In this document: piece by piece, positions 5,226-49,680 of the stretch
Layout: each line of letters starts with the position of its first letter
Position numbering within the stretch: position 1 is the stretch's first letter
From: a virus
Lineage: Duplodnaviria; Heunggongvirae; Uroviricota; Caudoviricetes
Reading direction: 5' to 3' (one strand)
Virus record (IMG/VR): IMGVR_UViG_3300037384_000074
Coordinates: 20,112 to 84,111 of that record
DNA length: 64,000 nt
Program-made: the position numbers and the translations under genes
Notes under the pieces: generated by a model
Database searches by the model: none
Told to the model about the DNA's origin: nothing
What the model saw: the letters and a program-made list of their open reading frames with translations, nothing else

Positions 5226-5470
5226 TGGAAGAATTAGAAAACGTTAGTGATGTCTACTACGATGACTCGTACATTAAGCTTACTGAGACCTACAGACTTG
5301 ATGAGACCTACATCAAGTCTGTAGCACTTGATCCTTTCGAATTTAAGAATCGTCGTCAGGATCTTCGACTATCGGTTGGGATGGGAACACTATATTTGTC
5401 TGTTTTTCCTGACCCGTTCATAGAGGGAACCCGTATGTGCCAGACAATTGAATGGACACGTGATGAGTGA
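5225..5470 (+). CDS. hypothetical protein
   Basis: 81-aa ORF, TAATG overlap with the nrdA stop. Confidence 0.35.
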   Translation: MEELENVSDVYYDDSYIKLTETYRLDETYIKSVALDPFEFKNRRQDLRLSVGMGTLYLSVFPDPFIEGTRMCQTIEWTRDE

Positions 5471-6125
5471 TGAAGCAGTATTTTACGATGATCGTGAAGT
5501 AGACGGCATCTATGGCTGGTGGTGGAACCCAGTTGACACTGGTGCATGGGAAGGACCAAAGATCGATTGGGAGACCTCTCATAAACATCTTATTGACAGG
5601 CACTGTACACGTAAGCGAACTGTAATACAGGCTGGTGGCAACTTGGGGATGTATCCTAAGCTATTATCACGTCAGTTTGAGAAGGTAATAACATTCGAGC
5701 CAGATCTTTTGAATTACGATATTTTGCAGCGTAATTGTGTCGAAACCAATATTACCGCATTCCCACTTGCACTTGGATATGATCACGGCGTTGGGGTAAT
5801 GAGAAGGCCTTCACGTATTAACGTCGGCATGAATTATGTTGAAAACGTTGGTGAGCTTGATAACTTGTCACCAATTCAAGACAAGGTCGACATAATTCCA
5901 CTCGACCGTATTATGAAGCCAGATTTAAACGTCGATCTACTAATGTTGGATGTAGAGGGAAGTGAACTTAGTGTCCTTCTAGGTAGCAAAGAGATAATCA
6001 CGATGTTTCGACCGGTGATTTTCTGTGAGCGTCCTACAATAAACGTGCATTCTTTTCTCGAAGCATATGGATATAGAAAAGCTGATACATCGGCGATGGA
6101 TACAGTCTTTATTCCGTGGGATTGA
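5463..6125 (+). CDS. FkbM-family SAM-dependent methyltransferase
   Basis: VIQAGGNLG...ITFEP...ALG matches the Methyltransf_21/FkbM signature (G.N.G, FEP). ATG at 5463; TTG at 5448 is an alternative. Confidence 0.55.
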   Translation: MSDEAVFYDDREVDGIYGWWWNPVDTGAWEGPKIDWETSHKHLIDRHCTRKRTVIQAGGNLGMYPKLLSRQFEKVITFEPDLLNYDILQRNCVETNITAFPLALGYDHGVGVMRRPSRINVGMNYVENVGELDNLSPIQDKVDIIPLDRIMKPDLNVDLLMLDVEGSELSVLLGSKEIITMFRPVIFCERPTINVHSFLEAYGYRKADTSAMDTVFIPWD

Positions 6126-13371: not shown

Positions 13372-14901
13372 ATGGGTAGCATGGATACATTTTATACGTA
13401 TGTCGGTCAGCATTGGGATGATATCTTAGTGTCTGGGTATGAAAACGGCATCAAATTTAATCGCAAAGTCAAGTATACTCCTTATCTTTTCGTACCAGGC
13501 AATGGCGAATTCAAGACTGTTGACGGTAAGAATCTCTCACGGATTGACTTCGATTCGATCAAAGAAGCTCGTGAATTTGCAAAACAATACGATGAGATCG
13601 CTAATTTTAAGATTTACGGTCTTTCAAACTATCCTTACGTGTATCTCTATGAGAAATACCGTAAACTTAGTGTAGATGCTAAGAAGATTCGAGTTGGTAA
13701 TCTCGATATTGAGACTGATTCACAGGATGGGTATGGCAATATCCAGTTGGCTGATAGAGCCATTGTATCAATTACAATTAAGGTACTCCGCGAAAAGGAA
13801 ATTTTCGTACTCGGGCTCAAGCCATACCAGACGGAAGAGCCTGAATTGCTCGATATGATCACCAAAGGCTACAAGATCAAGTATGTTGAGTGTGTAAATG
13901 AAGCAATGCTGTTGCGTCGTTTCATCAAGATATGGCAGCATTTAGAGCTCGACGCCACGATGGGGTGGAACTCTAAAATGTTCGATATTCCATATATTAT
14001 CAAGCGGATTAAGCAGACCCTTACAGAAAAGGATGCTCTTGAACTGTCGCCTTTCAATCGAATTGACAAGGGCGAAGTCACTATGTATGGAAGAGTGAAC
14101 GATGTGTTCACTATTTGTGGCGTTCCTCACCTTGATTACATTGAGGTATACCAAAAGTTCTCCACGCCTGCGAACGGTAGAGAGGAGTCATATACTCTTA
14201 ACTATATCTCAGGTAAGATTTTGAAAGCAACTAAGCTCGATTATTCTGAGTATAGAACGCTTGCTGCACTATATAATCAGAATTTCAACAAGTTCATCGA
14301 CTACAATATCATCGACGTTCTACGTGTTGAGCAGCTTGAAGAGTACCTAAAATATCTTGAACTAGTGTTCACGATTGCGTATTTTGCAGGCATCAATTAT
14401 GAAGATACGTTTGGAACGATTCGACCTTGGGATATTATGATCCATAATTACCTTATGGATCGCGGGATTGCAATTCCCACAAAGGTTAGAAACACCAAAG
14501 AACGTCAGATCGCAGGTGGACATGTTAAGGATCCACATGTTGGCCGCCATGAACATGTAATTTCATTCGATTTTACAAGCCTCTATCCGATGTTGATTCA
14601 ATCTTTCAATATTTCTCCTGAGACTCTTCTAGGGTCTTTCGACCCAGTTGTTGGTGATTATTCAGTTGATAAGATCCTTTCAGGTATAATGTCACAGTAT
14701 GTTGACGAGATGGTCGAAAATAACGTGGCTATTACGGGTAAGGGAACTGTTTTTTCACGAGATAAACAAGGATTCATGCCGGCTTTGATGCAAGAGTTAT
14801 TTGCCGAACGTAAGCGATATACTGCGATCGAAGAGGCGGCAGATGCTAAGTTAGCTCCGGTGATGACTGAAATTGAGCGTAGAGGAATTAAGACGAAGTG
14901 A
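13372..14901 (+). CDS. DNA polymerase family B, N-terminal portion (exonuclease domain + motif A), gp43-like
   Basis: FDFTSLYPMLIQSFNISPETL equals pol-B motif A and aligns with T4 gp43 FDLTSLYPSIIRQVNISPETI. The ORF ends with ...IKTK immediately before motif B. Confidence 0.85.
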   Translation: MGSMDTFYTYVGQHWDDILVSGYENGIKFNRKVKYTPYLFVPGNGEFKTVDGKNLSRIDFDSIKEAREFAKQYDEIANFKIYGLSNYPYVYLYEKYRKLSVDAKKIRVGNLDIETDSQDGYGNIQLADRAIVSITIKVLREKEIFVLGLKPYQTEEPELLDMITKGYKIKYVECVNEAMLLRRFIKIWQHLELDATMGWNSKMFDIPYIIKRIKQTLTEKDALELSPFNRIDKGEVTMYGRVNDVFTICGVPHLDYIEVYQKFSTPANGREESYTLNYISGKILKATKLDYSEYRTLAALYNQNFNKFIDYNIIDVLRVEQLEEYLKYLELVFTIAYFAGINYEDTFGTIRPWDIMIHNYLMDRGIAIPTKVRNTKERQIAGGHVKDPHVGRHEHVISFDFTSLYPMLIQSFNISPETLLGSFDPVVGDYSVDKILSGIMSQYVDEMVENNVAITGKGTVFSRDKQGFMPALMQELFAERKRYTAIEEAADAKLAPVMTEIERRGIKTK

Positions 14902-14920: not shown

Positions 14921-15697
14921 ATGAAACCAAACAGTAAAAAACAGTATATTCAAGAATTGGCCCCAATAATCCAGAACCTCTTAGATTCTGGACTCTCACT
15001 AAGTGAGGGTTGTACTAAACTGGGATTAATATACCACGCGACCTACGCTTTGTTAAAACGTCATACTAATTTAGTAATATCTACTAAGACTAACGGTAAA
15101 AGTGCATCAACATTAAAGGCCTTTCAAAATAAGATCAAAATTCCTGATTCCGAATTAGAAACGATAAAAGATCTATATTTCAATGAAATGATGTGTTTGA
15201 GCGCAATAGGTAAACGTTATAATACAACAGGTGCGACAATTATGTCTTTTATGAAAAGACATAATATCGTTAGACGAACTCATCTCGAAAACAAAATTCG
15301 AATGCTAGATCGACCTGAGTATAGAGCTCAACTAAAAGATTGGGGTGTTCAAGGATATCTAGCTAGACGAACTACACGAACTAAACCTGAACGATTGTTT
15401 GCAGAATTTCTTGAACGTAATAATATAAAATATGAAGAGCAATTTAGACGAGTAGGTAACAAGCACCCTTACGATTTTCGATTGAAAGACTACAATACGT
15501 TAGTTGAAATAGATGGACATTATTGGCACTCCAAACCTGAACAAAAACTGAAGGATGATATTCATACTAATGATGCAATTTCTAAAGGATTTTATGTGGT
15601 CCGTATTTGCACCAGTCAGTTAAAAAATGATAGTTTTAAAGTTATATTAGAGAGATTTTTGAATGAATGTGGATACTCTGTCGAATTTATCGAATGA
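14921..15697 (+). CDS. homing-endonuclease-like protein (Vsr/DUF559-type PD-(D/E)xK nuclease domain) inserted in the polymerase gene
   Basis: The C-terminus VEIDGHYWHSKPEQKLKDDIHTNDAISKGFYVVRI matches the DUF559/Vsr endonuclease pattern (E.DG..H ... D ... G..VvR). AGAGGA RBS. Different codon and amino-acid usage (K/N-rich) from its neighbours. Confidence 0.55.
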   Translation: MKPNSKKQYIQELAPIIQNLLDSGLSLSEGCTKLGLIYHATYALLKRHTNLVISTKTNGKSASTLKAFQNKIKIPDSELETIKDLYFNEMMCLSAIGKRYNTTGATIMSFMKRHNIVRRTHLENKIRMLDRPEYRAQLKDWGVQGYLARRTTRTKPERLFAEFLERNNIKYEEQFRRVGNKHPYDFRLKDYNTLVEIDGHYWHSKPEQKLKDDIHTNDAISKGFYVVRICTSQLKNDSFKVILERFLNECGYSVEFIE

Positions 15698-15813: not shown

Positions 15814-16875
15814 ATGAGGTGGTATGCCGATGATCTAGCAGAGAGTATTACTCTTTCCGGCCAGCTCTCGGTTAAATGGGTAGAGCGTGACGTCAATTTG
15901 TTCCTCAACAACCTATTGAAGACCACTGATGTCGATTATATTGTTGCGATTGACACCGATTCTTGTTATGTGAAGGCTGACGCAGTTGTAAAACGCGCCT
16001 TCAAGGAAGAAACATACGATCAGGAAGAAGTCACTGTATTCCTTGAGAATTTTGCTGCAAAACTTGAACAGGTGATCGCTAACAGCCTTGAAGAACTATA
16101 TATATCAACCAATATCTTCGAGAAGAAGCTTCATATGAAGCTGGAAGCAATTGGTTCTGCTATTTGGACTTCCAAAAAGCACTATGTAATGGCTCTGAAG
16201 TCGTTCAAGGGAGTTCATCACTTCCCTCCAAAGATCAAGATGCAGGGAATCGAGGCAGTTAGATCATCAACGCCTAAGTTCTGCCGTGAGGCAATTAAGG
16301 AAGCTATTCCTAAGATCATTGAGGCAGATCGGGATTGGTTGAAAGCATTCATTGAAACCAAGCGTGAAGAGTTCTCCGAACTACCATTTGATCAAGTAGC
16401 ATCTCCTAGAGGTGTTAGTGATATCGACAAGTGGTTCGACAAGGACTCAATTTACATCAAGCGTACGCCGATCCAAGTGCGTGGAGCATTGCTATATAAT
16501 AACAAGGTAGCAACGACGAAGCTCAATTACGATCTTCCAATGATTCGTAGCGGTGACAAAATTCGATTCTGCTATATGAGACTACCAAATCCGTTAATGG
16601 AGAACGTGTTTGCTGTTCCGGATGAGATGCCAGAAGCGTTCCAATTGGATGACTACATCGATTATAGCAAGCAGTTCGATAAAACGTTCATGGAGCCAAT
16701 CAAGAATCTAATCAAAGCAGCAGGTATCGATATATCTGACAAGATCGACATCACTCAATTCTTCTCGGAGCCGCTTGCAGAGGAAGACCAGGATCCTACT
16801 GCAGGTCTCGATCTAATTGAAGACGATGGGTTCTGGGATAATACTGAAGAGGAAGATACAGTTTGGATAAACTAG
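15814..16875 (+). CDS. DNA polymerase family B, C-terminal portion (motif C + thumb). The motif B sequence is encoded in-frame upstream of this ATG, from 15769.
   Basis: YIVAIDTDSCYV is motif C (DTDS). The in-frame upstream codons 15769-15813 read RCYFNGGYGALSNEH, which matches T4 KILINSLYGALGNIH (motif B). Confidence 0.8.
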   Translation: MRWYADDLAESITLSGQLSVKWVERDVNLFLNNLLKTTDVDYIVAIDTDSCYVKADAVVKRAFKEETYDQEEVTVFLENFAAKLEQVIANSLEELYISTNIFEKKLHMKLEAIGSAIWTSKKHYVMALKSFKGVHHFPPKIKMQGIEAVRSSTPKFCREAIKEAIPKIIEADRDWLKAFIETKREEFSELPFDQVASPRGVSDIDKWFDKDSIYIKRTPIQVRGALLYNNKVATTKLNYDLPMIRSGDKIRFCYMRLPNPLMENVFAVPDEMPEAFQLDDYIDYSKQFDKTFMEPIKNLIKAAGIDISDKIDITQFFSEPLAEEDQDPTAGLDLIEDDGFWDNTEEEDTVWIN

Positions 16876-22961: not shown

Positions 22962-23740
22962 AATATCTAGACGCTGTTGTATTAATTCTTCTGTCAGTAT
23001 TCGTCTATGCGGCAATGACAGACAGTAATTGGTACGAGTTTCGACACAATATTCTTGGTGAAAACCCGAGAAGTATTGCAGAAAATGTTGAATCTACTAC
23101 TGAGATATTGGTAATCAACTCTGAAAACCCTAAAGAGATGGGATCTGGTACGGGAGTGCTAATTAACTCACGTCAGATCCTGTCTGCTGCCCACATATTT
23201 GACCCCAAGTGGAATAATCCTACTATCAAAGTCAAGGTATTAGGTGAAGATATTGTAGCTAAAGTTGACAACGTTTTCATTGAAAACGGAGAGGATCTAG
23301 CGGTACTAACGCTTGAAAAGGCAGTACCGCTAGATCCTATATCTATTGATTGCACTCCATTGCAATATTCTGCTGAAGATGTATACACTATTGGTTCGCC
23401 ATATGGTACTGAAAAGTTAATCCGGTTCGGCAATATTGCGAGATTGAGCCCAACTTTATACAAACGAGCTTGGCAACAGGATAAAACTGAAGAAGAAAAA
23501 CTTGAGTGGAAGAAGAATCATAAATCACTCAACACGATTGATATGACAGCTTTTCCTGGTAATTCCGGCGGTCCTGTCTTCAATAAGCGCAATAATATGA
23601 TTGGGATAGTCAGTAGTATCATGACTGTTATAAATTTAAATGGGCGTGGATACGAAAATAACCATTATACATTCACTATTAAGCCGGAATTAGTGTGTCA
23701 AGTTCTCACTGATGGCAAATATAAATTCATGAAAGCATAA
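22958..23740 (+). CDS. trypsin-like serine protease (S1 family) with N-terminal signal/TM
   Basis: Catalytic triad contexts ILSAAHI (His), GEDLAVLTL (Asp), FPGNSGGPVF (Ser, GDSGGP-like); hydrophobic N-terminus. Confidence 0.7.
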   Translation: MKYLDAVVLILLSVFVYAAMTDSNWYEFRHNILGENPRSIAENVESTTEILVINSENPKEMGSGTGVLINSRQILSAAHIFDPKWNNPTIKVKVLGEDIVAKVDNVFIENGEDLAVLTLEKAVPLDPISIDCTPLQYSAEDVYTIGSPYGTEKLIRFGNIARLSPTLYKRAWQQDKTEEEKLEWKKNHKSLNTIDMTAFPGNSGGPVFNKRNNMIGIVSSIMTVINLNGRGYENNHYTFTIKPELVCQVLTDGKYKFMKA

Positions 23741-23741
23741 T

Positions 23742-24638
23742 ATGACAACAATTAGTGCCAAATCGGTACAGTCGTCTCGCGGTCTATCAACGGGCGAAAC
23801 TGTCCATTCAATTGAGGCTAGATATCCTCGATTTATCCACGCAGAAGTAATGACTCATCGCGATTTCTCGCGAAATGCAGCTAGCTCTCGAGCTATTCCG
23901 ATCCTTAAAATGATCAAGGATATCATCAAGGATCCGGCAGTCCCACTGCACCTTGGAGCCGCCCAGAAGGGAATGCAGGCAGATGTTGAGCTGACAGGAT
24001 GGCGCCGTTGGCTTGTTCGGACTGCTTGGCTTACTGCAATGTGGTTCGTAATTGTACTAGCTTTGATTGCATACGCAGCCGGTGCTCATAAGCAAGTTGT
24101 AAATCGAATGCTGGAGCCTTGGTCGCATATCACAGTAATCATTACCTCTTCGAGTTGGAATAACTTCTTCCATCTAAGGCGTCATCGAGATGCTGAGCCG
24201 CATATTCATATGCTCGCCGATAGGATTTACGAAGCAATCCAGAACGCTGATGTGTATACTATTGGTGATGGTGAATGGCACGTGCCATACGTAGATCGCG
24301 CTGTTGACATGTATAGTAAAACCGTGTATTCAGTGCGAGATGAGACTGGCAATGTTATCGTCTTGAGTCTAGACGAAGCTCTGATTGTATCAGCAGCACG
24401 TTGTGCATCAACATCTTATCGAACTGTTGACGGTAAGATCATGAGCTATGAACGCGCCAAGATTGTAGCTGACAAACTCGTTAAGGCAGACGTTCTACAC
24501 GCTTCACCTTTCGAACATCAGTGCACTCCTGATCGTAAGGGTCCAGGTGATCAGTGGGATAATCCTAGACTGCACGGCAATCTACGTGGTTTCAAGCAGG
24601 CTCGTAAGCTATATCCAAACGAATCTGTACCGGGATAA
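23742..24638 (+). CDS. thyX: flavin-dependent thymidylate synthase ThyX (motif variant THR for RHR)
   Basis: FIHAEVMTHRDFSRNAASSRA aligns with the ThyX signature F.H..vRHR..S....S.R. No ThyA-type motifs. Confidence 0.65.
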   Translation: MTTISAKSVQSSRGLSTGETVHSIEARYPRFIHAEVMTHRDFSRNAASSRAIPILKMIKDIIKDPAVPLHLGAAQKGMQADVELTGWRRWLVRTAWLTAMWFVIVLALIAYAAGAHKQVVNRMLEPWSHITVIITSSSWNNFFHLRRHRDAEPHIHMLADRIYEAIQNADVYTIGDGEWHVPYVDRAVDMYSKTVYSVRDETGNVIVLSLDEALIVSAARCASTSYRTVDGKIMSYERAKIVADKLVKADVLHASPFEHQCTPDRKGPGDQWDNPRLHGNLRGFKQARKLYPNESVPG

Positions 24639-24693
24639 TGTGTTGACTTGTAACATAAACATCGTATAATTTCGATAATAATGGAGATGTGAT

Positions 24694-25977
24694 ATGCGTG
24701 TTTATGAAGTTGGCGGCAAAGTTAGAGACTCTATATTGGGGATGGCATCAAATGACATTGATTATGTCATTGTTGGAGGCACCCATGAAGAGATGATTGC
24801 TGCCGGTTATAAGCAGGTTGGGGTCGATTTTCCAGTCTACATTGATGAAAAGGGTATCGAGCATGCTTTCGCTCGCACTGAGCGAAAGACTGGTGATGGA
24901 TACACGAGTTTCACTGTATCGACTCTGAATGTCACACTCGAAGAAGATCTTGCCCGCCGCGACCTCACTATCAACGCCATGGCGCAGCGAGCGAGATCTC
25001 ACCCACTCGATGATGGGTCCGACGATGGATATGACCATCATTGGATGGATACTGCCGCGGTAATCGATCCTTATAAGGGTCGTCGTGATCTCGACACTTG
25101 TGTGATTCGGCACGTGACAGACGCCGGGTTTGTTGAAGATCCTGTCCGAATCTTGCGAGTTGCGCGATTTTTGGCACGATTCCCCACGTTTGATGTCCAT
25201 CCTGACACCTTCAAGTTGATCAAGAAAATGGTCGACGACGGGATGGTTCATCATCTTGTACCTGATCGAGTCGCGCTAGAGCTCAAGAAGGCTCTATCAT
25301 CATCGGTTCCTTCTAGGTTCTTCTACTTCCTTCAAATGGTAGGGGCACTGGAAATACTGTTTCCTGAACTCCACGCTTTGATCGGAAAAACTCAGCCTTC
25401 TCGTCATCATCCTGAAGGGGATGCGTTCGTTCATACGATGCTCGTCCTCGAAGAGAGTGCAAATCGATCCGACATCATGTATCGTTGGGCAGCTCTCGTG
25501 CATGATCTTGGGAAGGGGACTTCTGATATAGCGAATCTCCCTCATCATTATGGGCATGAAGATCGTGGGCCTGCTCTTGTAGAGAAGATGGTTAAGCGTC
25601 TCAACCTGTCGAATGACTTCTTGAAGGTCGGGCAGTTTGTGGCGAAGTATCATACTCATGTTCATCGTGTCTTTGTGATGAAGGCTAGCACTATTGCCAA
25701 TATCGCAGAGCTCTCGGTCGTTCGAGATCGAAAGATGATAGAGTATCTGTGCATCACATCTAGCAACGATGCACGTGGGCGTGGGCCATACTATGCGCGC
25801 GTATCGTATCCAAATTGCGCTGCAATGTCCTCTGCTTTGCACGCTGCAGTAGATATCAACCTACGAGATGTAATGACTGAGGAAGAGATTGAAAAGGCTT
25901 CGATCGATAAGCGGAAACAAGTTCTGTTTCGAGCTCGAACCAACGCTGTCAGTAATGCACTCGCAAGATTCAAGTAG
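24694..25977 (+). CDS. cca: CCA-adding tRNA nucleotidyltransferase with HD phosphohydrolase domain
   Basis: Head MRVYEVGGKVRDSILG...DIDYVIVGG (GGxVRD, DxD) and HD domain HHPEGDAFVHTMLVLE...HDLGK; 427 aa, as in class II bacterial CCA enzymes. Confidence 0.8.
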   Translation: MRVYEVGGKVRDSILGMASNDIDYVIVGGTHEEMIAAGYKQVGVDFPVYIDEKGIEHAFARTERKTGDGYTSFTVSTLNVTLEEDLARRDLTINAMAQRARSHPLDDGSDDGYDHHWMDTAAVIDPYKGRRDLDTCVIRHVTDAGFVEDPVRILRVARFLARFPTFDVHPDTFKLIKKMVDDGMVHHLVPDRVALELKKALSSSVPSRFFYFLQMVGALEILFPELHALIGKTQPSRHHPEGDAFVHTMLVLEESANRSDIMYRWAALVHDLGKGTSDIANLPHHYGHEDRGPALVEKMVKRLNLSNDFLKVGQFVAKYHTHVHRVFVMKASTIANIAELSVVRDRKMIEYLCITSSNDARGRGPYYARVSYPNCAAMSSALHAAVDINLRDVMTEEEIEKASIDKRKQVLFRARTNAVSNALARFK

Positions 25978-25985
25978 GATTTACA

Positions 25986-26666
25986 TTGGACTATAATTTC
26001 CCAATCATTGCCAATTATGATGCTATCAAGTTTGCTCTAGAAGGCCCAGGTAGTGATGACTTTGTAGAGGTCGTAAAAGGCTCCTACAAAGTCATCAACT
26101 ACATTAAGATCTCTTCGGACACATTTCGACCAATTAATGTCGAAGGTATTGGTCACGAAGAACGTCAGAGACGTATCATTCGCCGCGAATTCCGTGGCTT
26201 GATCTTTGATGATAAGTCCGGTGATCTAATTCGTCGACCATATTCCAAGTTTTTCAACTTGAATGAACGTGAAGAAACGTTGAAGGAAACGATTGACTTC
26301 AATCAGCCTCATGATATTCTTCAAAAACTCGACGGGAGTATGGTGGCACCCTTCATCACAAGTGATGGAGTACTCCGCTTTGGAACAAAGATGGGAGAGA
26401 CTGATATCTCTCAACAGGCTCTCGACTACTGTAAAAAAAACGATAAAGATCTCGATTTCATTCGTTGGGTAATTGAAGAGCTCGGAAGCACACCCATTTT
26501 TGAGTGGTGTTCTAGGGCAAATCGTGTAGTAATCGACTACCCTCAGCCGCGATTCGTGTTGACCGCTTGTCGTGATATAGTATCAGGGACTTACTGGAGT
26601 TTCGATGAAATGCATGCTACCTTTGGCATGCAAAATTTCGAAATCGTGGGACATTTTAAGGTATAA
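25986..26666 (+). CDS. rnlA: RNA ligase 1 (T4 RnlA-like), N-terminal part with adenylylation motif I
   Basis: LQKLDGSMV is the KxDGS motif I, at the position expected for Rnl1. Ends at an in-frame TAA (26664-26666). Confidence 0.7.
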   Translation: MDYNFPIIANYDAIKFALEGPGSDDFVEVVKGSYKVINYIKISSDTFRPINVEGIGHEERQRRIIRREFRGLIFDDKSGDLIRRPYSKFFNLNEREETLKETIDFNQPHDILQKLDGSMVAPFITSDGVLRFGTKMGETDISQQALDYCKKNDKDLDFIRWVIEELGSTPIFEWCSRANRVVIDYPQPRFVLTACRDIVSGTYWSFDEMHATFGMQNFEIVGHFKV

Positions 26667-26669
26667 TTA

Positions 26670-27215
26670 GTGAAAACTGATATTGATTCCTTGCTTCAGG
26701 TCATTGTGGACCTTGAAGGGCAAGAAGGTGTAGTCGTTCGCTTTAGTGACGGCCACATGACAAAAATCAAGAGCTCCATTTACGTCAATATCCATCGTGC
26801 TAAGGATAATCTCCTGTACGAACGTCACGTCATTGAGATGATTCTTAATGAAACAGTGGATGATGTGAAGGCATTCTTGCCTGATATTGACAAGCAGAAC
26901 CTAGATCAGTACCAAGATAATATCTCAAAGTGGATCGACTCCACAGTTGAGCGCCTGTATTTACTTTGCTATAAGCCAATGATTGAAGAGAAATACTCTC
27001 GTAAACAGTTTGCAATCAATGTATCTGCTCAGGCTAAACCATTCGATTCATTTCTGTTTAAGAATTATGAGCAGATTCAGGAAGCTGACCCCAGTATATA
27101 CCATGAGTTTCTTGTTGAAGGTGTGGAACAAGCTCTACTGAAAGCCTGTAGTTCTAACTCTAGCTTGACAACGTTCAAGTCTATCGCAAATATCCATTTC
27201 AATTGGAGTCTATAA
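26670..27215 (+). CDS. rnlA: RNA ligase 1, C-terminal part (motifs IV and V), same frame as the upstream part
   Basis: EGQEGVVVRF is motif IV and HMTKIKS is motif V. The spacing from motif I (~132 aa) equals that in T4 Rnl1. It is separated from the N-terminal part by a single TAA plus one codon. Confidence 0.65.
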   Translation: MKTDIDSLLQVIVDLEGQEGVVVRFSDGHMTKIKSSIYVNIHRAKDNLLYERHVIEMILNETVDDVKAFLPDIDKQNLDQYQDNISKWIDSTVERLYLLCYKPMIEEKYSRKQFAINVSAQAKPFDSFLFKNYEQIQEADPSIYHEFLVEGVEQALLKACSSNSSLTTFKSIANIHFNWSL

Positions 27216-27688
27216 TGCCTAATTGTGTGCTTTTGGTAGGTCTGCCATGTTCTGGCAAGACCACTTTTGTTCGGAATCACCCCGAATATTGTGACAATCG
27301 TCGTTATGAAATCCTGAGCAGCGACGATATTCTTGAAGAGATGGCTGAGATCCTTGGTAAGACATACAATGAAGCTTGGCCTGATTATTATGCGTGGGCC
27401 GATTTCCTTTTCTGGGAAAGGCTTGATAAGGCAATCGCTGATAAGCGTAATTTTATTGTCGATCGCACGAGTCTGACGGTCAATACACGTCGTAAGATCC
27501 TCAGTAGAGTTCCTAAATCCTACAAGAAAATCGCTATCGATTTTAAGCCAAACCCGACTGTGACTAACAAGCGGAACGTTCGGCCTGGAAAGATTATCCC
27601 TAATGGGACTCTTTGGTCCATGCTTTGCGCTTATGAAATGCCCTCCTTCTTTGAAGGCTTTGATGATATTGAGCAGCGCCATGTTTGA
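27215..27688 (+). CDS. polynucleotide 5'-kinase, P-loop kinase domain only (T4 Pnk-like, no phosphatase domain)
   Basis: CVLLVGLPCSGKTTFVRNHP vs T4 Pnk IILTIGCPGSGKSTWAREF. 157 aa equals the T4 Pnk kinase domain. TAATG overlap with rnlA. Confidence 0.65.
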   Translation: MPNCVLLVGLPCSGKTTFVRNHPEYCDNRRYEILSSDDILEEMAEILGKTYNEAWPDYYAWADFLFWERLDKAIADKRNFIVDRTSLTVNTRRKILSRVPKSYKKIAIDFKPNPTVTNKRNVRPGKIIPNGTLWSMLCAYEMPSFFEGFDDIEQRHV

Positions 27689-27790
27689 AGCTCACGTAAT
27701 TAATGGAATTAAATTCGTATATCGTGTTACTATTAATGGCAATACCAACCGTAGGATTGAGTTGGTTGCTACATACCCAGATTGGAATGA

Positions 27791-28831
27791 TTGATGAGTG
27801 GTTTACAGAAGAAACAGATCAGCAAGCTAGTTGCTGACCGAGTAAAGTATTGGGCATTCTCTTTCAAGGATGCCAAGAACTTCAAGGACGGAAAGATTCT
27901 TGAACTAGAGAACTTTGAAGAGCCGACCGACGACGATAAGTCCAAGATTCGAGATTTCCAGCAGAGTATTATCCATAACACTGTAGTTACTGGCGGTGCG
28001 ATCGCCTCAATGCTTCTAGGAGAAGAAGTTAACGATCTCGACATCTATTTTAAGGATCGTGAAATCGCCAAGAAGGTTGCTCATTATTACATCAACACTA
28101 TGAAGGAAAAGCTTGGTACAACCAATCAGGTTTCACGTGTCGAAGTTATGGACAACACAACTGGAGGCGTTGATATCGTCATCAAGTCCATGGGTGTCGT
28201 ATCCGACGATAGCGGTGGTACTGGCGACTATGATTACTTCGAGGGTCGTACGGAAAACGATGTCAACGAATTCTTTAACAAATATAAGAAGGTTGCTGGT
28301 AAGAATGACGAGGGTCCGAAGCATGCGGTCTCATTCATCTCGTCTAACGCAATCACACTGAAGAACGATATCCAGATTATTCTACGATTCTGTGGCGATC
28401 CAAGTGAGATCCATAAGAACTTCGACTTCGCACATTGTACGAATTATTGGACTAGCCACACTGGCACAGTATATAATGAGGAAGCTCTGTCAGCACTGTT
28501 GGAAAGGCGGCTATATTACATTGGCTCACGTTACCCTGTAGCATCTCTGTTCCGAATTCGTAAGTTTGTTGAGCGTGGATATAGAATTTCTGGTGGAGAG
28601 ATCCTCAAGATTGCATATGACGTATCCAAGTTGGACTTAGATGAGGCGCATACACTCAAAGATCAGCTTTGTGGTATGGATCTAGCATTTTTCTCACAGG
28701 TCATTTCAATGCTCAATAACCGCGAACCTGGAACAACAATAGATAGGACATATCTTTTTAACGTCGTGGATCGGATATTCAAACTCGGAGAGACTGATGC
28801 TGATAATGGCATGGAACTTCATAACGACTGA
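27791..28831 (+). CDS. nucleotidyltransferase, CCA/poly(A)-polymerase head-like (pol-beta superfamily)
   Basis: VVTGGAIASMLLGEEVNDLDIYF resembles the class II CCA/PAP head (GGxxxxxLLGxxxxDxDI). Confidence 0.45.
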   Translation: MMSGLQKKQISKLVADRVKYWAFSFKDAKNFKDGKILELENFEEPTDDDKSKIRDFQQSIIHNTVVTGGAIASMLLGEEVNDLDIYFKDREIAKKVAHYYINTMKEKLGTTNQVSRVEVMDNTTGGVDIVIKSMGVVSDDSGGTGDYDYFEGRTENDVNEFFNKYKKVAGKNDEGPKHAVSFISSNAITLKNDIQIILRFCGDPSEIHKNFDFAHCTNYWTSHTGTVYNEEALSALLERRLYYIGSRYPVASLFRIRKFVERGYRISGGEILKIAYDVSKLDLDEAHTLKDQLCGMDLAFFSQVISMLNNREPGTTIDRTYLFNVVDRIFKLGETDADNGMELHND

Positions 28832-28878
28832 CCATTCCACACTATTGTGCTATATGGAGCAGTAAAGAATCGGAAACG

Positions 28879-29508
28879 TTGATGTGTAATGTAATGTGTA
28901 ACGATTGCGTCCTAAATCAAAACGCAAAGATCGTGTATGAGATTCATGTTACAGTTGATAGTTCTAGTCTATGTGACCTAGATATTCAGTGGTTTCAAAG
29001 GATGTGTTCAGCATGGGGAATCAAAGGTATCGTAATCGAAAACCTTAGTCCATCTGGAGAAGTCTCCGTCGATGTGATGACATCAAGCGTCGTTAAGACA
29101 ACATACCTTGATGCCTTTAATGAAATGAATGAGATTGCATCTGAGCTAACAGCGTTAGATTTTGATGTTATCAGGCGTAAAATTGAGACTGTTTCCTGGA
29201 ATTTCCCCGATAATCCGGACCAAAAGGGATATTTCGAAACACACATCGAATTCGACGTTGCTGACATCGATCATTTCAGTGTACTAGTGCGGCAGTTGGG
29301 TGGATATGTCAGTAGAAATGCGAATAAGCCTGGAAAGGCTATCGCTACTCTACGTAGAAATGCCCGCTCGTGGTTCCTATATGGCTACGATCTAGGTCCA
29401 TTTGTGGATGGGATTGAGTCGGCAGGATACGTAGCAAACAAAACACTTAATGAGTATTGTCCGTACGATGACAATCCAACTCATGATGATTCGTGGATTA
29501 AAGGGTAA
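28879..29508 (+). CDS. hypothetical protein
   Basis: 209-aa ORF inside the tRNA-repair cluster. Confidence 0.45.
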   Translation: MMCNVMCNDCVLNQNAKIVYEIHVTVDSSSLCDLDIQWFQRMCSAWGIKGIVIENLSPSGEVSVDVMTSSVVKTTYLDAFNEMNEIASELTALDFDVIRRKIETVSWNFPDNPDQKGYFETHIEFDVADIDHFSVLVRQLGGYVSRNANKPGKAIATLRRNARSWFLYGYDLGPFVDGIESAGYVANKTLNEYCPYDDNPTHDDSWIKG

Positions 29509-29512
29509 TATT

Positions 29513-29965
29513 ATGTCTCTATTCGAGAAGATTAAGAAAGATTATTACCGAACTCGCCTCGCTAAGGAAACAATCAGAATCAACCTATTGTCAACTCTGA
29601 TTGGCGATCTCGAGAGCTCTGCTAAGTTCGTTGATGGCAAGAAAGTTGTTGACGATCAGGCTGTAATCGGTATGATCAAAAAGTACCTCAAGAATAATGA
29701 AATCATTCTCGAGGCAGTTAAGCGAGTACCAGGTCGTTCTCCTGAAGAGGTGACCGCGCAGAGTGAATCAATCTATCGCACAACGAAGGAAATCGAAGTG
29801 TTGAACAGTTTTCTTCCTCAGCAGTTGTCTGAACAAGAGCTCAAAGATATCCTGAAGACTCTTTCGCAGCGGCCTGATTTCCCAAACTGGATGAAGTTCT
29901 TGAAGGCGAACTTCGCTGGACTGTATGATGGCAAGGTTGCTGCAGAAATCTTCAAGAATGCCTGA
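29513..29965 (+). CDS. GatB/YqeY-domain protein
   Basis: MSLFEKIKKDYYRTRLAKETIRINLLSTLIGDLES resembles the YqeY N-terminus (MSL...LRLSTLR). ATG 29513 follows the upstream stop. Confidence 0.5.
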   Translation: MSLFEKIKKDYYRTRLAKETIRINLLSTLIGDLESSAKFVDGKKVVDDQAVIGMIKKYLKNNEIILEAVKRVPGRSPEEVTAQSESIYRTTKEIEVLNSFLPQQLSEQELKDILKTLSQRPDFPNWMKFLKANFAGLYDGKVAAEIFKNA

Positions 29966-30041
29966 ATGGTCAGCCATAGACACAAATCTAGGCACATCTC
30001 CTATGATGCCAACTGATCCAACATTTAATTGGAGAGAATTT

Positions 30042-31133
30042 ATGCTTGAAACTATTGACGTTATCGAACACGTTGCAATGGATGTTGATATGACTGGCGG
30101 ACGAGCGCTAGCCACCGTCCGTCGCATTTCTGCACTAGATCCGATTCCAAACGCAGATCGGATCGAGCTTGCTACCGTCGATGGTTGGCAGGTTGTTGTC
30201 GCCAAGAATGTTGGTCATAAGGTAGGCGATCTTATCATTTATTTTGAAATCGACTCATTTTTGCCAATTGAGCCACAGTATGAGTTTCTTCGCAAGGGAT
30301 GTTACACCAAGAATACTGTTTACGGTGAAGGGTTCCGCCTCAAGACGATCCGCCTTCGCGGTGCCCTAAGTCAAGGGCTCATTATGCCTATGAGTGATAT
30401 GTATAGCTCTCTGCTTGGGTCTAATGATTTTTACGAAGGACAGGACGTTACCGAAATCCTCGGCGTCAAGAAGTATGAGAAGCCTCTTCCTGCATCTCTT
30501 GGGGGCATTGCTCGCGGCAATTTCCCGAGTTTCATCCCGAAGACTGATGAGGATCGTATCCAGAACTGCTTCGGTCGTCTGAAGCATAAGGTTCCAGACC
30601 AGCTCTACGAGGCTACAATCAAGCTTGATGGTACATCATTCACGGCGTATTATCATCGTGAGACTGATCGTTTCGGTGTCTGTTCGCGTAACCTCGATCT
30701 AGAGGAAACGGAAGGTAACCTATATTGGCAGATCGCTCGCCAGTTCAATATCGAAGATATTCTTTGCAATGCTGTCAGTGGATCTTTCGCCATTCAGGGT
30801 GAAATTATCGGCTCGGGTGTCAACGGCAACTGGGAAGGAATTGGTCACAACGAGCTTTATATTTTCAATGTATGGGACATTGAAAATCAGAAGTATCTTG
30901 ATTCCGAAGAGCGAATCGCTTTTGTCCAGGATATGGCTGGTCTCAAGAACGCGCCTGTAGTTGGCTATTATCGGTTCAGTGAATTTGATAGTGTCAATGA
31001 CTTCCTCCAGTTTGCTGATGGTCCTTCTATCTATAATGATCAGCGTGAAGGTGTTGTTTTCAAGGGTGTTGACGATCCTTCGATCAGTTTTAAAGTTATT
31101 AGCAACGCCTGGTTGATTTCATCTGGAGAATAA
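30042..31133 (+). CDS. ATP-dependent RNA ligase with N-terminal tRNA-binding OB domain (Myf/Trbp111-like)
   Basis: N-terminal IPNADRIELATVDGWQVVVAKN resembles the tRNA_bind domain (hPnADkL...VD.G...iV.ga.N); IKLDGTSFTAYY is the KxDG nucleotidyltransferase motif I; GGAGAG RBS. Confidence 0.6.
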   Translation: MLETIDVIEHVAMDVDMTGGRALATVRRISALDPIPNADRIELATVDGWQVVVAKNVGHKVGDLIIYFEIDSFLPIEPQYEFLRKGCYTKNTVYGEGFRLKTIRLRGALSQGLIMPMSDMYSSLLGSNDFYEGQDVTEILGVKKYEKPLPASLGGIARGNFPSFIPKTDEDRIQNCFGRLKHKVPDQLYEATIKLDGTSFTAYYHRETDRFGVCSRNLDLEETEGNLYWQIARQFNIEDILCNAVSGSFAIQGEIIGSGVNGNWEGIGHNELYIFNVWDIENQKYLDSEERIAFVQDMAGLKNAPVVGYYRFSEFDSVNDFLQFADGPSIYNDQREGVVFKGVDDPSISFKVISNAWLISSGE

Positions 31134-31134
31134 T

Positions 31135-31245
31135 ATGAACGGAACTGCACTAGTATTCGTAGCGATTGCTATAGGATGTCTTACTATCGCTTGGTGGCTA
31201 GACTATAGATTTGCCAAGGATTACTACGAGATTATCGATGAATGA
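31135..31245 (+). CDS. small TM peptide (36 aa)
   Basis: GGAGAA RBS; single hydrophobic helix. Confidence 0.25.
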   Translation: MNGTALVFVAIAIGCLTIAWWLDYRFAKDYYEIIDE

Positions 31246-31459
31246 CATGTCCAATTTCGTCCGTGTAGACGTTTCAGTTGTCAAGGAACGATACGAGGAG
31301 CTTAAACATCAAGAGACTCAGCGTAATTGGGCACATACTGTGTTGAAGTGGCATGAAGAATTCAATAGTATGGGGCTTCAACCAATAATTATGCACAACC
31401 CATTTGGAGGAGAGTGGGTTGTGACTTCCGACGAATCAATTAGGAATTGGTATCACTGA
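31238..31459 (+). CDS. hypothetical protein
   Basis: ORF 31211-31459 in the track; ATG 31238 preferred. Confidence 0.35.
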   Translation: MNDMSNFVRVDVSVVKERYEELKHQETQRNWAHTVLKWHEEFNSMGLQPIIMHNPFGGEWVVTSDESIRNWYH

Positions 31460-31580
31460 TGGCTGCAATTTTCACAATGATCGGAGCACTTGTAGTGTTG
31501 ATGATCATCCTAGCAGGTGTTTATTGGGTTTCCAAGAACATCTATTTTTCTTCCTACACCCCTAATGGAGATTCAAAATG
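31458..31580 (+). CDS. small TM peptide (40 aa)
   Basis: Hydrophobic helix; ATGA overlap with the SPFH gene start. Confidence 0.3.
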
Positions 31581-32438
31581 ACTTTCGGTCGCGGCGTTAC
31601 GCTTGCAGTAACGCTTCTAATCGCCCTCGTGGGACTCTCGTTTGTATTTGGTACCTGGTATACAGTTAATCAGGGCGAACGTGGCGTCATCGTACGAAAT
31701 GGTGCTGTTGTAGGTACCGCTGAACCTGGTCTAGGGTTCAAGATTCCGTGGATTGACAATGTTGTTGATGTGAACGTTCAGACTAACGTTCGTGAATACG
31801 ACAAGATGTCAGTGTATTCTCGTGATCAGCAGCCTGCAGTGATTCGAGTATCGATCAACTATCGTATTCCCGCTGATCGAGCTGCAGAGGTATACGGTGA
31901 GTATGGCGGTCAGGAAGGTATCGTGACTCGACTACTCGACCGCCAGGCATTTGAGAAGATCAAGAACGTTTTTGGTCGTTACAATGCTATCAATGCGATT
32001 CAGGAACGTACTCGACTGAATGCTGATATTACTGAGATCGTACGATCTGGCATCGGTGATGCGCCTATTGTGATCGAAACAGTTCAGCTTGAGAACATTG
32101 ACTTCTCTGATGCATATGAGTCTGCGATTGAAGCTCGTATGACGGCAGAAGTTGGTGTCGAGAAGGAAAAGCAGGGACTAGCTCGAGAGAAGGTATCTGC
32201 TGAGATTGCAGTGACTCAGGCTCAGGCTCAGGCTGATTCGAAGCTTGCAGTTGCTCGATCTAACGCAGAGGCAACTCGACTACAGGGTCTTGCTGAAGCT
32301 GATGCGATCAAGGCTCGAGGTGATGCTCTACGTGAGAATCCAGGCATTCCTGCACTGATTCAGGCGGAAAAGTGGAATGGTCAGCTACCTCAGACGATGG
32401 TGCCAGGATCAGCCGTACCGTTTATCAGCGTCAAGTGA
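31578..32438 (+). CDS. SPFH/band-7 (prohibitin/HflC-like) membrane protein
   Basis: N-terminal TM then YTVNQGERGVIVRNGAV...GLGFKIPWID, typical of the SPFH domain; coiled-coil A/Q-rich C-terminus. Confidence 0.7.
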   Translation: MTFGRGVTLAVTLLIALVGLSFVFGTWYTVNQGERGVIVRNGAVVGTAEPGLGFKIPWIDNVVDVNVQTNVREYDKMSVYSRDQQPAVIRVSINYRIPADRAAEVYGEYGGQEGIVTRLLDRQAFEKIKNVFGRYNAINAIQERTRLNADITEIVRSGIGDAPIVIETVQLENIDFSDAYESAIEARMTAEVGVEKEKQGLAREKVSAEIAVTQAQAQADSKLAVARSNAEATRLQGLAEADAIKARGDALRENPGIPALIQAEKWNGQLPQTMVPGSAVPFISVK

Positions 32439-32443
32439 CTAAG

Positions 32444-32468
32444 AAATCGCCCTTCGGGGCGATTTTTC
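32444..32468 (+). terminator. rho-independent terminator
   Basis: ATCGCCC-ttcg-GGGCGAT followed by TTTTTCG. Confidence 0.65.
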
Positions 32469-32527
32469 GTTGCCTCAGTATGTGATTTCGAGGAGTATCT
32501 CATTACCACAACCGATGGAGTAATCAA

Positions 32528-32893
32528 ATGACGACCTTCAATCGCACCATTCTCCGTGAAATTTCGGCTGATATTGATGTGGCACTCGCTGAAGTTGCTC
32601 GCAAGCATGGAATCAACCTTGAAAAGGGTACGATCCGTTTCAGTGCCGATTCCTTCAAGGTTTCCGTTTCTGGTTCGCAGAAGACTTCTGGTTCCTTGAT
32701 TGATGTGATCAAGGAAAACGATACTGGCACTGATTTGTTTCCGATCAACACTCGAATCCTTGTGAAGCGTACTGTGTATACGATCACTGGCTATAACAAG
32801 AATGCTCCCAAGTACCAGTACAATGTCGTCACCGATAAGGGCGCCAAGTGGCGTGCCTCGCACTCGATGCTCGCTAAGGGCGTTCGTATCTGA
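32528..32893 (+). CDS. hypothetical protein
   Basis: 121-aa ORF. Confidence 0.45.
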   Translation: MTTFNRTILREISADIDVALAEVARKHGINLEKGTIRFSADSFKVSVSGSQKTSGSLIDVIKENDTGTDLFPINTRILVKRTVYTITGYNKNAPKYQYNVVTDKGAKWRASHSMLAKGVRI

Positions 32894-32906
32894 ATAGGAA
32901 AATATA

Positions 32907-34793
32907 ATGTCTGTAAAGACTGTTGAAGATATTGTTGACCAGCTTAATCAGGCAGCTCTCGCATATGCCGAGGGCTTCCCGATTATGACTGATGAAGAGT
33001 TTGACGCACTTGAAATTCTTCTCAAGCTACGTGATCCTAAGAATGACTACTTCAAGGAAGTAGGCGCACCCGTTCGTGGTGCGAAGACTGCACTACCTGT
33101 AGCTATGGGTAGTCTCGATCAGGTGTATGGCAATGATCTGCTCTCTACTGTTCGTCAGTATTGGCTTACAGATGATGTAGCTATCCTCACGGCAAAGCTC
33201 GATGGCGCTTCACTACTACTTGAGTATGTGGATGGCGTTTTCAAGCGTGCGCTGACACGTGGTGATGGATATGAAGGCCAGGACGTAACGCAGATTTTCA
33301 CTCATTGTGAGTGTGTTCCGAAGAAGGTTCCGGGCATTTTTATGCCGAATCCTCTCTACATTCGGGCAGAAGCTATCTTTACTGAGAGTGATTTCAAGTC
33401 ACTCAATGAGGCTGGAAAGCTCGGCCGAACGTACAAGAACGCTCGAAACTACGTCGCTGGACAGCTAAATCGGCAGTATGCTGATGCTGAAAGCGTGTTT
33501 GTCAAGAACATTCACGTTATTGCATACCAGATCTTCGGCGATTTCAGCAAGTCACATCAGCTTGACATGCTCCGATTATTCGGGTTTGAGATCGCTGAAA
33601 ACCTGACTTCGACGTTCGAATCGCTGGATGAATCGAAGCTTGAGCGTGTCCTACGTCAGTTCAAGTCGAGTGAAATCTCATCAAAGTATGCTATTGATGG
33701 CGTCGTAGTCGATGTGGACGCCAATGATACTCGCGTTCGCCTCGCTGAATCCGACAATCGTGGTAGCATCAACCCGAACTTTCAGTGGAAGTTCAAGATC
33801 AATGACAACCGCACGATCACAACAGTTGTCGATGTCGAGTGGAACATCTCCAAGAATGGATATCTGAAGCCTCGAGTGCAGGTTGAACCTGTTGAGCTCG
33901 CTGGTGTCACTATTTCATTCGCAACAGGCTTCAATGCGAAGTTCATTGAGCTCAATGGTATTGGCAAGGGTGCCAAGATCCAGATTACTCGCTCCGGAGA
34001 CGTTATTCCACTCATCGAGAAGGTTGTGGAACGAGTAGAACCGTCTCTTCCAACTGAGGAAGAATATGGCGAACTTGAGTGGACGCCTAACCGCGTTGAC
34101 CTCAAACTTGTACATGATCACGACGACGCTAAGATTGGTCGGATGATTGATCTGTTTTCGTCACTCGACGTTCCTCAGCTTCGTGAAGGAACTGTGATTA
34201 AGCTGTTTGACGCTGGCTTCCAGGACCCTGCTTCAGTGATTAACGCTAGCCTTGATGCACTGATTCATGCGGTAGGTGATGCTGCTGGTCGCAAGGTGTT
34301 CAACGGTATTCAATCGAAACTGAACCCTGTCACGATCTCTGATCTCGCTGGTTCTTCGCAGGTATTCGGTCGAGGACTCGGGAAGAGGAAGTTCAAGAAG
34401 CTGTTTGAGCAGTATCAGGACATCCTCGGACTGACTCGTGAGCAGATCATCGCTGCCGAAGGGTTCGATGTTAAGAGTGCTGACAAGATTATCGGTGGGA
34501 TGGGAGCGTTTAAGCAGTTCTTGGCCGACATCGAAGGGAAGTATACTCTCAAGATCGAAGGTAAGATCGAGGGTCCCTTGACTGGTATTGGCGTCTGTTT
34601 CACTGGAGTTCGCAGCAAGGAACTAGAGGAAGCTATCACTTCAAAGGGTGGTCGAATCGATAGTTCCGTCAGCAAGAAGACGACTCACCTCGTCTGCAAG
34701 GATCCGAATAGCGGGTCTGCGAAGCTCAAGAAGGCTTCTGATAGTGGCGTAAACGTTCTCTCGATCGAGAATGCATGGAAGCTGTGGGGTTGA
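32907..34793 (+). CDS. ligA: NAD-dependent DNA ligase LigA with C-terminal BRCT
   Basis: Adenylation motif LTAKLDGASL (KxDG); 628 aa; C-terminal GVCFTGVRSKELEEAITSKGGRIDSSVSKKTTHLVC is a BRCT domain. Confidence 0.85.
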   Translation: MSVKTVEDIVDQLNQAALAYAEGFPIMTDEEFDALEILLKLRDPKNDYFKEVGAPVRGAKTALPVAMGSLDQVYGNDLLSTVRQYWLTDDVAILTAKLDGASLLLEYVDGVFKRALTRGDGYEGQDVTQIFTHCECVPKKVPGIFMPNPLYIRAEAIFTESDFKSLNEAGKLGRTYKNARNYVAGQLNRQYADAESVFVKNIHVIAYQIFGDFSKSHQLDMLRLFGFEIAENLTSTFESLDESKLERVLRQFKSSEISSKYAIDGVVVDVDANDTRVRLAESDNRGSINPNFQWKFKINDNRTITTVVDVEWNISKNGYLKPRVQVEPVELAGVTISFATGFNAKFIELNGIGKGAKIQITRSGDVIPLIEKVVERVEPSLPTEEEYGELEWTPNRVDLKLVHDHDDAKIGRMIDLFSSLDVPQLREGTVIKLFDAGFQDPASVINASLDALIHAVGDAAGRKVFNGIQSKLNPVTISDLAGSSQVFGRGLGKRKFKKLFEQYQDILGLTREQIIAAEGFDVKSADKIIGGMGAFKQFLADIEGKYTLKIEGKIEGPLTGIGVCFTGVRSKELEEAITSKGGRIDSSVSKKTTHLVCKDPNSGSAKLKKASDSGVNVLSIENAWKLWG

Positions 34794-49596: not shown

Positions 49597-49680
49597 ACTA
49601 GGTATGCAGAATGGGGCTGCCGGCTGCTCATAACGGTCTCCCGCAAGGGCGAGTAGGTTCGATTCCTACACCTAGTACCA
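49597..49680 (+). tRNA. tRNA-like gene, anticodon CAU (Met or Ile-lysidine), encoded CCA, atypical long variable arm
   Basis: 7-bp acceptor stem ACTAGGT/ACCTAGT; D arm GCAG-aatgggg-CTGC; anticodon loop CUCAUAA; T arm GTAGG-TTCGATT-CCTAC; discriminator A then CCA. A 14-nt variable arm and A at position 8 are atypical. Confidence 0.5.

Follow-up and report, generated by a model that had tools for sequence, protein, structure and literature searches.

Conserved division of a phage Rnl1-type RNA ligase between two adjacent genes

Among phage tRNA-repair ligases, RNA ligase 1 (Rnl1) is the textbook example; it also serves as a standard laboratory reagent, and to our knowledge it has always been treated as one polypeptide. 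In phage T4 Rnl1 (RnlA, gp63; PDB 2C5U, 5TT6 and 9DO4) the nucleotidyltransferase motifs stand in the order KxDGS, III, IIIa, EGxxx and KxK, and the helical C-terminal domain confers tRNA specificity. Mutagenesis of the T4 enzyme has found the motif I lysine, the motif IV glutamate and the motif V lysines all to be essential. The tail-fiber attachment activity of gp63 is independent of ligation. Here we describe a ligase from a 64,000-nucleotide (nt) stretch of a Caudoviricetes virus (IMG/VR record IMGVR_UViG_3300037384_000074; the whole stretch is called the window), which shares the fold, motif order and helical C-terminal domain of T4 Rnl1 and likewise lies beside a polynucleotide kinase-like gene in an RNA-repair context. 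Unlike the single T4 polypeptide, to which it is only about 23% identical, the chain encoded at this locus (25986-27215) is broken between motifs IIIa and IV into two open reading frames (ORFs), referred to as the N piece and the C piece. These are very probably two conserved genes, not one recoded or broken gene.

Genes in pieces have been described in T4-related phages, among them nrdA/mobE of Aeh1, gene 39/60 with mobA in T4, and the DNA polymerase genes 43A/43B of phages 25 and 44RR (PMC2988022). The two nrdA pieces of Aeh1 were shown to reassemble into an active enzyme, and in both nrdA/mobE and T4 39/60 the inserted endonuclease ends the upstream part with a stop and equips the downstream part with its own ribosome-binding site and start codon (PMC2988022). 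Gene 43 of 44RR is split without an endonuclease, so that an endonuclease is usual for the class and not obligatory (PMC2988022). The ligase arrangement belongs to this class: a gene that is contiguous in relatives is likewise cut in a critical region with both ORFs kept, and an endonuclease likewise stands at the cut in the ligase relatives on contigs L016, L008, L012 and L013. It differs from the T4-related cases in that the clade of the window carries no endonuclease at the cut, the two ORFs lying 3 nt apart in the window, and in that the Rnl1 split recurs independently at two neighboring loops. The split DNA polymerase gene of the window follows the same logic, with two colinear pieces, and differs by having its endonuclease still in place; split polymerases have PHROG families of their own (phrog_2062 and phrog_1918) and are therefore common and known. 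A split Rnl1 is, as far as we found, an unreported case of the class. A literature search found no published split Rnl1 or rnlA, PMC3322345 mentioning split genes and RNA ligase and not a split ligase, and tblastn searches of deposited phages with the joined protein and with the split relative on L012 listed 100 records, all of them one-piece and at most 54% identical.

The ligase locus and the conservation of its split

The two ORFs lie in one frame, and at their junction (letters 26649-26675: GGA CAT TTT AAG GTA TAA TTA GTG AAA) they are parted only by the TAA stop codon (26664-26666) and a single TTA codon (26667-26669), an arrangement that a preliminary description of this DNA had already recorded and that is borne out here. 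Motifs, profile and fold all place the product in the Rnl1 family of ligases, from which it departs in not being a single chain. The N piece matches Pfam RNA_lig_T4_1 (E=2.2e-19, 70.7 bits against a cut-off of 28.3) and the C piece matches T4_Rnl1_C weakly (17.2 bits, under the cut-off of 27). In PHROG 562 (RNA ligase / tail fibre attachment catalyst) the N piece covers model positions 28-204 of 377 (E=8e-37) and the C piece positions 215-352 of 377 (E=7e-23); since these stretches are successive, the two ORFs tile one family model. The joined sequence matches T4 Rnl1 (2C5U) with E=2e-21, and KLDGS, FEW, EGVVVR and KIK align with the T4 Rnl1 motifs in canonical order over the two ORFs, in agreement with the earlier assignment of the gene to the Rnl1 type and of motif I to the first piece and motifs IV and V to the second. 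The K, D and G of motif I, the E and G of motif IV and both motif V lysines are invariant in 39 homologues. The combined length of 226+181 = 407 amino acids (aa) compares with 391-417 aa in intact relatives, to which the pieces are colinear with nothing missing or extra. Lysine 114 in motif I is the predicted acceptor of adenosine monophosphate. Judged from the aligned motifs, neither piece has a complete active site, since one chain bears the motif I lysine and the other the glutamate of motif IV and the lysines of motif V. Because the catalytic residues are divided between the chains, neither piece would be a ligase alone and activity would need both, as the preliminary description had also concluded.

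The break is not peculiar to the window. When 5.8 billion proteins were searched with the joined ligase sequence, the matches listed above 45% identity comprised only the N piece of the window and two proteins of 226 aa (P0002, 76% identical) and 227 aa (P0004, 64% identical), both of which end where the N piece of the window ends. The remaining matches listed are at most 45% identical; most are 385-428 aa long and a few 326-382 aa. P0002 is carried by contigs L001-L003, which come from three different sequencing runs, and P0004 by contig L004. The gene order CCA-adding enzyme, N piece, C-piece ORF, P-loop kinase is common to the window, L001 and L004. In the alignment all three N pieces stop at one and the same residue (...EIVGHFKV, ...EIVRTFKF and ...EIVGHFKG, each followed by its stop), and the orthologues of the C piece (182 and 184 aa) are 59% and 40% identical to that of the window.

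The reading frames do not share this constancy. The junction reads TAA TTA GTG in the window (frame 0), TTT TAATG in L001 (-1, the start overlapping the stop) and GGA TAA T ATG in L004 (+1), giving second-ORF frame offsets of 0, 2 and 1, respectively; the L001 junction is identical in the three independent run assemblies L001-L003. The split is conserved, the frame relation is not, and the in-frame layout of the window is incidental. The junction has gathered small indels of a kind that is harmless between two cistrons and destructive to a read-through product.

The split is also old. Synonymous sites are saturated among the three lineages (pS 0.71-0.81), and the nonsynonymous values (N piece, pN 0.16-0.25; C piece, pN 0.28-0.44) are similar to those of the adjacent CCA-enzyme and kinase genes. 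With pN/pS ratios of 0.20-0.32 for the N piece and about 0.16-0.53 for the C piece, both pieces are under purifying selection. The next closest relatives, at 47-49% identity, are intact (402 and 391 aa), and scans of viral and metagenome contigs with the N piece reached intact relatives at 47-49% identity only. The 181-aa ORF of the C piece was also called by the Joint Genome Institute (JGI; P0121), and the two ligase proteins of the window are each present on 2 JGI contigs. An exact look-up of the N-piece sequence of the window returned no record, and megablast of positions 24600-28900 against deposited phages gave no match, leaving no close cultured relative for comparison.

Position of the cut and genomic surroundings

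The chain is unbroken in all 38 full-length homologues aligned, and the cut of the window falls in a poorly conserved stretch of variable length. By sequence alignment it corresponds to about residue 211/212 of T4 Rnl1, some 15 residues ahead of motif IV. An AlphaFold2 model of the two pieces joined as one chain (mean predicted local distance difference test score, pLDDT, 93.3; predicted template modeling score, pTM, 0.83) has three T4 Rnl1 structures as its top fold matches (2C5U, E=2.5e-21) and is helical from residue 262 to the end. In the model the junction (226/227) is located in loop 225-230, between a short strand and the helix (231-239) leading to the motif IV strand, and this loop is the block of lowest confidence. 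The modeled break thus lies in a surface loop inside the nucleotidyltransferase domain, between motifs IIIa and IV.

The split gene stands inside a large cluster of nucleic-acid repair and metabolism genes (23742-34793; Table 1). A kinase gene follows the ligase in the window and on L001, L004, L005, L007 and L012, and in the window the stop codon of the C piece overlaps the ATG of the next gene (TAATG, 27213-27217).

Table 1. Features of the window around the divided ligase, at the split DNA polymerase and at the tRNA genes
Feature	Coordinates	Strand	Description
DNA polymerase piece 1	13372-14901		phrog_262 positions 5-491 of 856
HNH homing endonuclease between polymerase pieces	14921-15697		phrog_559
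DNA polymerase piece 2	15814-16875		phrog_262 positions 533-852 of 856
ThyX	23742-24638		
CCA-adding tRNA nucleotidyltransferase	24694-25977	+	Pfam PolyA_pol, PolyA_pol_RNAbd, weak HD; upstream neighbor of the ligase
Rnl1 N piece	25986-26666	+	TTG start; 226 aa, ending ...EIVGHFKV-TAA; most of the nucleotidyltransferase domain; motifs I, III and IIIa
Motif I, KLDGS	26325-26339	+	Aligns with KEDGS of T4 Rnl1; in N piece
AAGG, Shine-Dalgarno-like	26658-26661	+	8 nt 5' of GTG 26670; conserved Lys codon plus next base
TAA stop of N piece	26664-26666	+	TAA-T context; same TAAT in L001, L004 and L009
Rnl1 C piece	26670-27215	+	GTG start; 181 aa; helix, motif IV and V strands, all-helical C-terminal domain
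Motif IV, EGVVVR	26724-26741	+	Aligns with EGYVA of T4 Rnl1; in C piece
Motif V, KIK	26763-26771	+	Aligns with KIK of T4 Rnl1; in C piece
P-loop kinase, candidate polynucleotide 5'-kinase	27215-27688	+	Pfam AAA_33, E=7e-17; translationally coupled to C piece
Gad2-like / Pol-beta-type nucleotidyltransferase	27791-28831		
YqeY-like ORF	29450-29965		
Second RNA ligase, intact	29925-31133		phrog_968
NAD-dependent DNA ligase	32907-34793		
tRNA Met-CAU	49597-49680		ARAGORN; 84 nt, long for tRNA-Met
tRNA Phe-GAA	59565-59636		ARAGORN

Other split Rnl1 loci and homing endonucleases

With the C piece as query, a word-indexed search gave only 3 matches. Among the best 150 representative matches of an exhaustive HMMER search covering 1.84 billion representatives, about 34 are C-terminal pieces of 165-226 aa. 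Some of these short proteins start close to where the C piece starts and others some 20 residues before it; the genomic context was verified for 8 of the roughly 34, and the others could include truncated gene calls. Two cut sites are seen, site B being the loop that is cut in the window and site A lying about 20 residues upstream, after a conserved TGxY. At site B, L016 has an N piece of 222 aa and a C piece of 165 aa, with a 224-aa homing endonuclease between them on the opposite strand (phrog_314, E=2e-26). At site A, an HNH_3 endonuclease on the opposite strand parts the pieces of L008 (203 and 195 aa) and those of L012 (205 and 205 aa), and a phrog_655 homing endonuclease parts those of L013 (196 and 176 aa). 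L015, also split at site A (206 and 199 aa), has a 73-aa ORF in this place (2279-2500), which has no Pfam or PHROG match and may be a mobile-element remnant, and contigs L009-L011 (206 and 200 aa) carry no insert at site A, the junction reading TAA-T-ATG. Homing endonucleases are therefore present at the same site in other lineages; none is found at the split in the window, L001 or L004, where -1 to +3 nt separate the ORFs. A further candidate, L014 (P0234), was dropped as an example of a split, its upstream sequence being unrelated, GC-rich and at a contig end.

The split forms are scattered among intact ones in a neighbor-joining tree, in which the window, L001 and L004 are monophyletic; L008, for instance, shares 69% identity with P0007, an intact form, and L012 shares 60% with P0014, also intact. 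As a quick distance tree it supports polyphyly and not a precise count of fissions, and the sequences suggest at least six separate fission events, an approximate figure, at two neighboring loops flanking one helix-strand element.

Several further observations concern the endonucleases and the split relatives. On L001 the CCA-adding enzyme and the N piece are parted by a 250-aa homing endonuclease (phrog_655, E=1e-22; 5230-5982, minus strand), and in the window by just an 8-nt spacer (25978-25985). Together with the endonuclease resident between the polymerase pieces of the window, this shows that homing endonucleases are active in this phage group and around the ligase gene. One repeated C-terminal motif (NTPEAIAKRVATRKA / HTPEAIAKRTKTRK) is shared by the L008 and L012 endonucleases, which are of the HNH_3 type, and by that of L016, an unrelated phrog_314 enzyme, which suggests that nuclease domains of different kinds, all aimed at one gene, carry the same DNA-binding module. 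On L012 a Thg1-like tRNA-His guanylyltransferase (84-842) is encoded directly upstream of the ligase and two tRNA genes lie downstream (4984-5574). The order Thg1, ligase, kinase is also found in Rhizobium phage RHph_I1_18, with the ligase intact.

On L013 the TAA that closes a mini-ORF (2414-2510; MDGSMMDVQHLISKYNIPVVKA) shares the frame of the ligase C piece (..VVKA-stop-DGTVENMEWLL..; ...IPVVKA TAA GAT GGC ACT GTA GAG AAC ATG GAA TGG...). This TAA is a second interruption besides the site A split and falls at the structural position of the stop in the window, in an unrelated lineage represented by one contig. It could be an error, a new nonsense mutation, the mark of a three-piece ligase or a case of recoding.

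Translation, assembly and rival readings

The reading that we favor as a whole, with a probability of roughly three in four, is that of a two-cistron Rnl1 in the genes-in-pieces manner, whose parts would be translated separately, would assemble non-covalently into an active ligase, and would owe their separation to a homing endonuclease. In the most likely history, a homing endonuclease gene would have inserted into an ancestral one-chain Rnl1, in the loop preceding motif IV, and would have brought with it the stop that ends the upstream part as well as the ribosome-binding site and start codon used by the downstream part. The split would have been tolerated if the two polypeptides could still assemble, and later loss of the endonuclease gene would have left the minimal scar of a TAA, 0-1 codon and a start, after which the two cistrons would have evolved as a coupled pair. 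In the present locus, termination at TAA 26664-26666 would free a 226-aa N piece with the adenylylated lysine and motifs I, III and IIIa, and synthesis of the 181-aa C piece would begin at GTG 26670, whether ribosomes re-initiate there or initiate anew on the AAGG 8 nt upstream. The two chains would then associate non-covalently to form one nucleotidyltransferase fold with an active site drawn from both.

The junctions are consistent with such a scheme. Each C piece has its own start codon at -1 to +3 nt from the stop, and a purine-rich element precedes that codon by 5-8 nt in the window (AAGG), L004 (AAGGGA, 5 nt before the ATG) and L009 (GGGA, 5 nt before the ATG). Compact junctions (TAATATG, ATGA, TAATG) also join other genes of the window, for example TAATATG at 23738-23744. 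The simplest reading of the ligase junction is two translationally coupled cistrons.

Several points weigh against this interpretation. Only three lineages with this exact split were found, and the Shine-Dalgarno-like element is weak in L001 (AAG only). The break is inside the catalytic domain and not between domains, making reassembly demanding. A second, intact RNA ligase is encoded nearby, so that RNA repair does not strictly depend on the split enzyme working as a ligase. No member of the three-lineage clade keeps an endonuclease at the junction, and for this clade an endonuclease origin is an analogy only. Lastly, low-level read-through in the window would yield a colinear full-length protein.

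The second ligase also bears on an alternative in which the pieces are sub-functionalized fragments without ligase activity, the N piece acting for example as a nucleotide-binding or tail-fiber-assembly factor and the C piece as a tRNA-binding protein. The faster evolution of the C piece relative to the N piece would fit such a division, as would the second activity of T4 gp63, which is mirrored in the name of PHROG 562. However, residues needed for catalysis only (K, D and G of motif I, E and G of motif IV, both lysines of motif V) are invariant across the split clade, and the pieces are always adjacent, tightly coupled and within the RNA-repair cluster of CCA enzyme and kinase. We therefore regard loss of the ligase function as unlikely.

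A second alternative is programmed recoding, in which read-through of TAA 26664 or a hop from GTA 26661 to GTG 26670 makes a single-chain ligase that is the active form. The ORFs of the window are indeed in frame and colinear with intact homologues, and the unrelated split ligase of L013 has an in-frame TAA at the same structural position. However, with the second ORF of the closest relatives at -1 and +1, reading through would give nonsense there, and three different mechanisms would be needed at one site; two in-frame cases of four are the chance expectation. TAA-T is among the strongest termination contexts in E. coli, and TAA is followed by T at all junctions compared, each of which also has a start codon of its own. 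TAA is an ordinary stop in the window, because 13 of the 41 non-overlapping ORFs of at least 150 aa end in it (20 end in TGA and 8 in TAG). ARAGORN reported two tRNAs in the window, Met-CAU and Phe-GAA, and no suppressor tRNA, and Rfam at E<=1 gave no match and no recoding element in 24000-30000. Recoding as the source of the active enzyme is accordingly very improbable. We give just as little credence to a variant in which low-level read-through or the GTA-to-GTG hop adds a single-chain isoform, with regulated two-chain and one-chain forms.

The preliminary description had offered read-through or recoding, a suppressor tRNA, a recent nonsense mutation and a sequencing error as causes of the in-frame stop. 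None of the four holds, and its list lacked the one explanation that does fit, a split enzyme encoded by two genes and conserved as such. It had also counted a single tRNA in the window; its statement that the CAU tRNA at 49597 is no ochre suppressor stands, and the count does not, Phe-GAA at 59565 being the second. A pseudogene or artefact, that is, a recent nonsense mutation or assembly error in a single-chain ligase, would be suggested by a lone in-frame stop of the kind that one point mutation or base-call error makes, yet it is excluded, short of a systematic error common to unrelated assemblies, since the stop recurs at the same position at 76% and 64% identity with saturated synonymous divergence, is present in the three independent run assemblies of the L001 lineage, with the window proteins each on 2 JGI contigs, and is flanked by two open pieces with low pN/pS and intact catalytic motifs. 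Restoration of a single chain by a split intein at the protein level or an intron at the RNA level, both of which often accompany homing endonucleases in phage genes (PMC2677866; PMC2988022), has a near-zero probability and is excluded in the window, where there is no extra sequence, only 3 nt lie between the ORFs and 226+181 aa equal the intact length; Rfam searches in gathering and E-value modes matched no group I or II intron in the window or in the endonuclease-bearing split loci.

The read-through idea that made this locus look exotic is unsupported. Genome annotation should mark pairs of this kind neither as pseudogenes nor as frameshifted genes. Homing endonucleases of at least three different families have landed repeatedly in one stretch of about 25 residues of Rnl1, and the loci look like snapshots of a likely life cycle, from insertion through a split with resident endonuclease to its loss and a permanent two-gene enzyme. 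If the two-cistron reading is true, a long-lived two-chain Rnl1 cut inside its catalytic domain would demonstrate that fragments suffice to reassemble this fold, and would provide a ready-made design for split-ligase tools.

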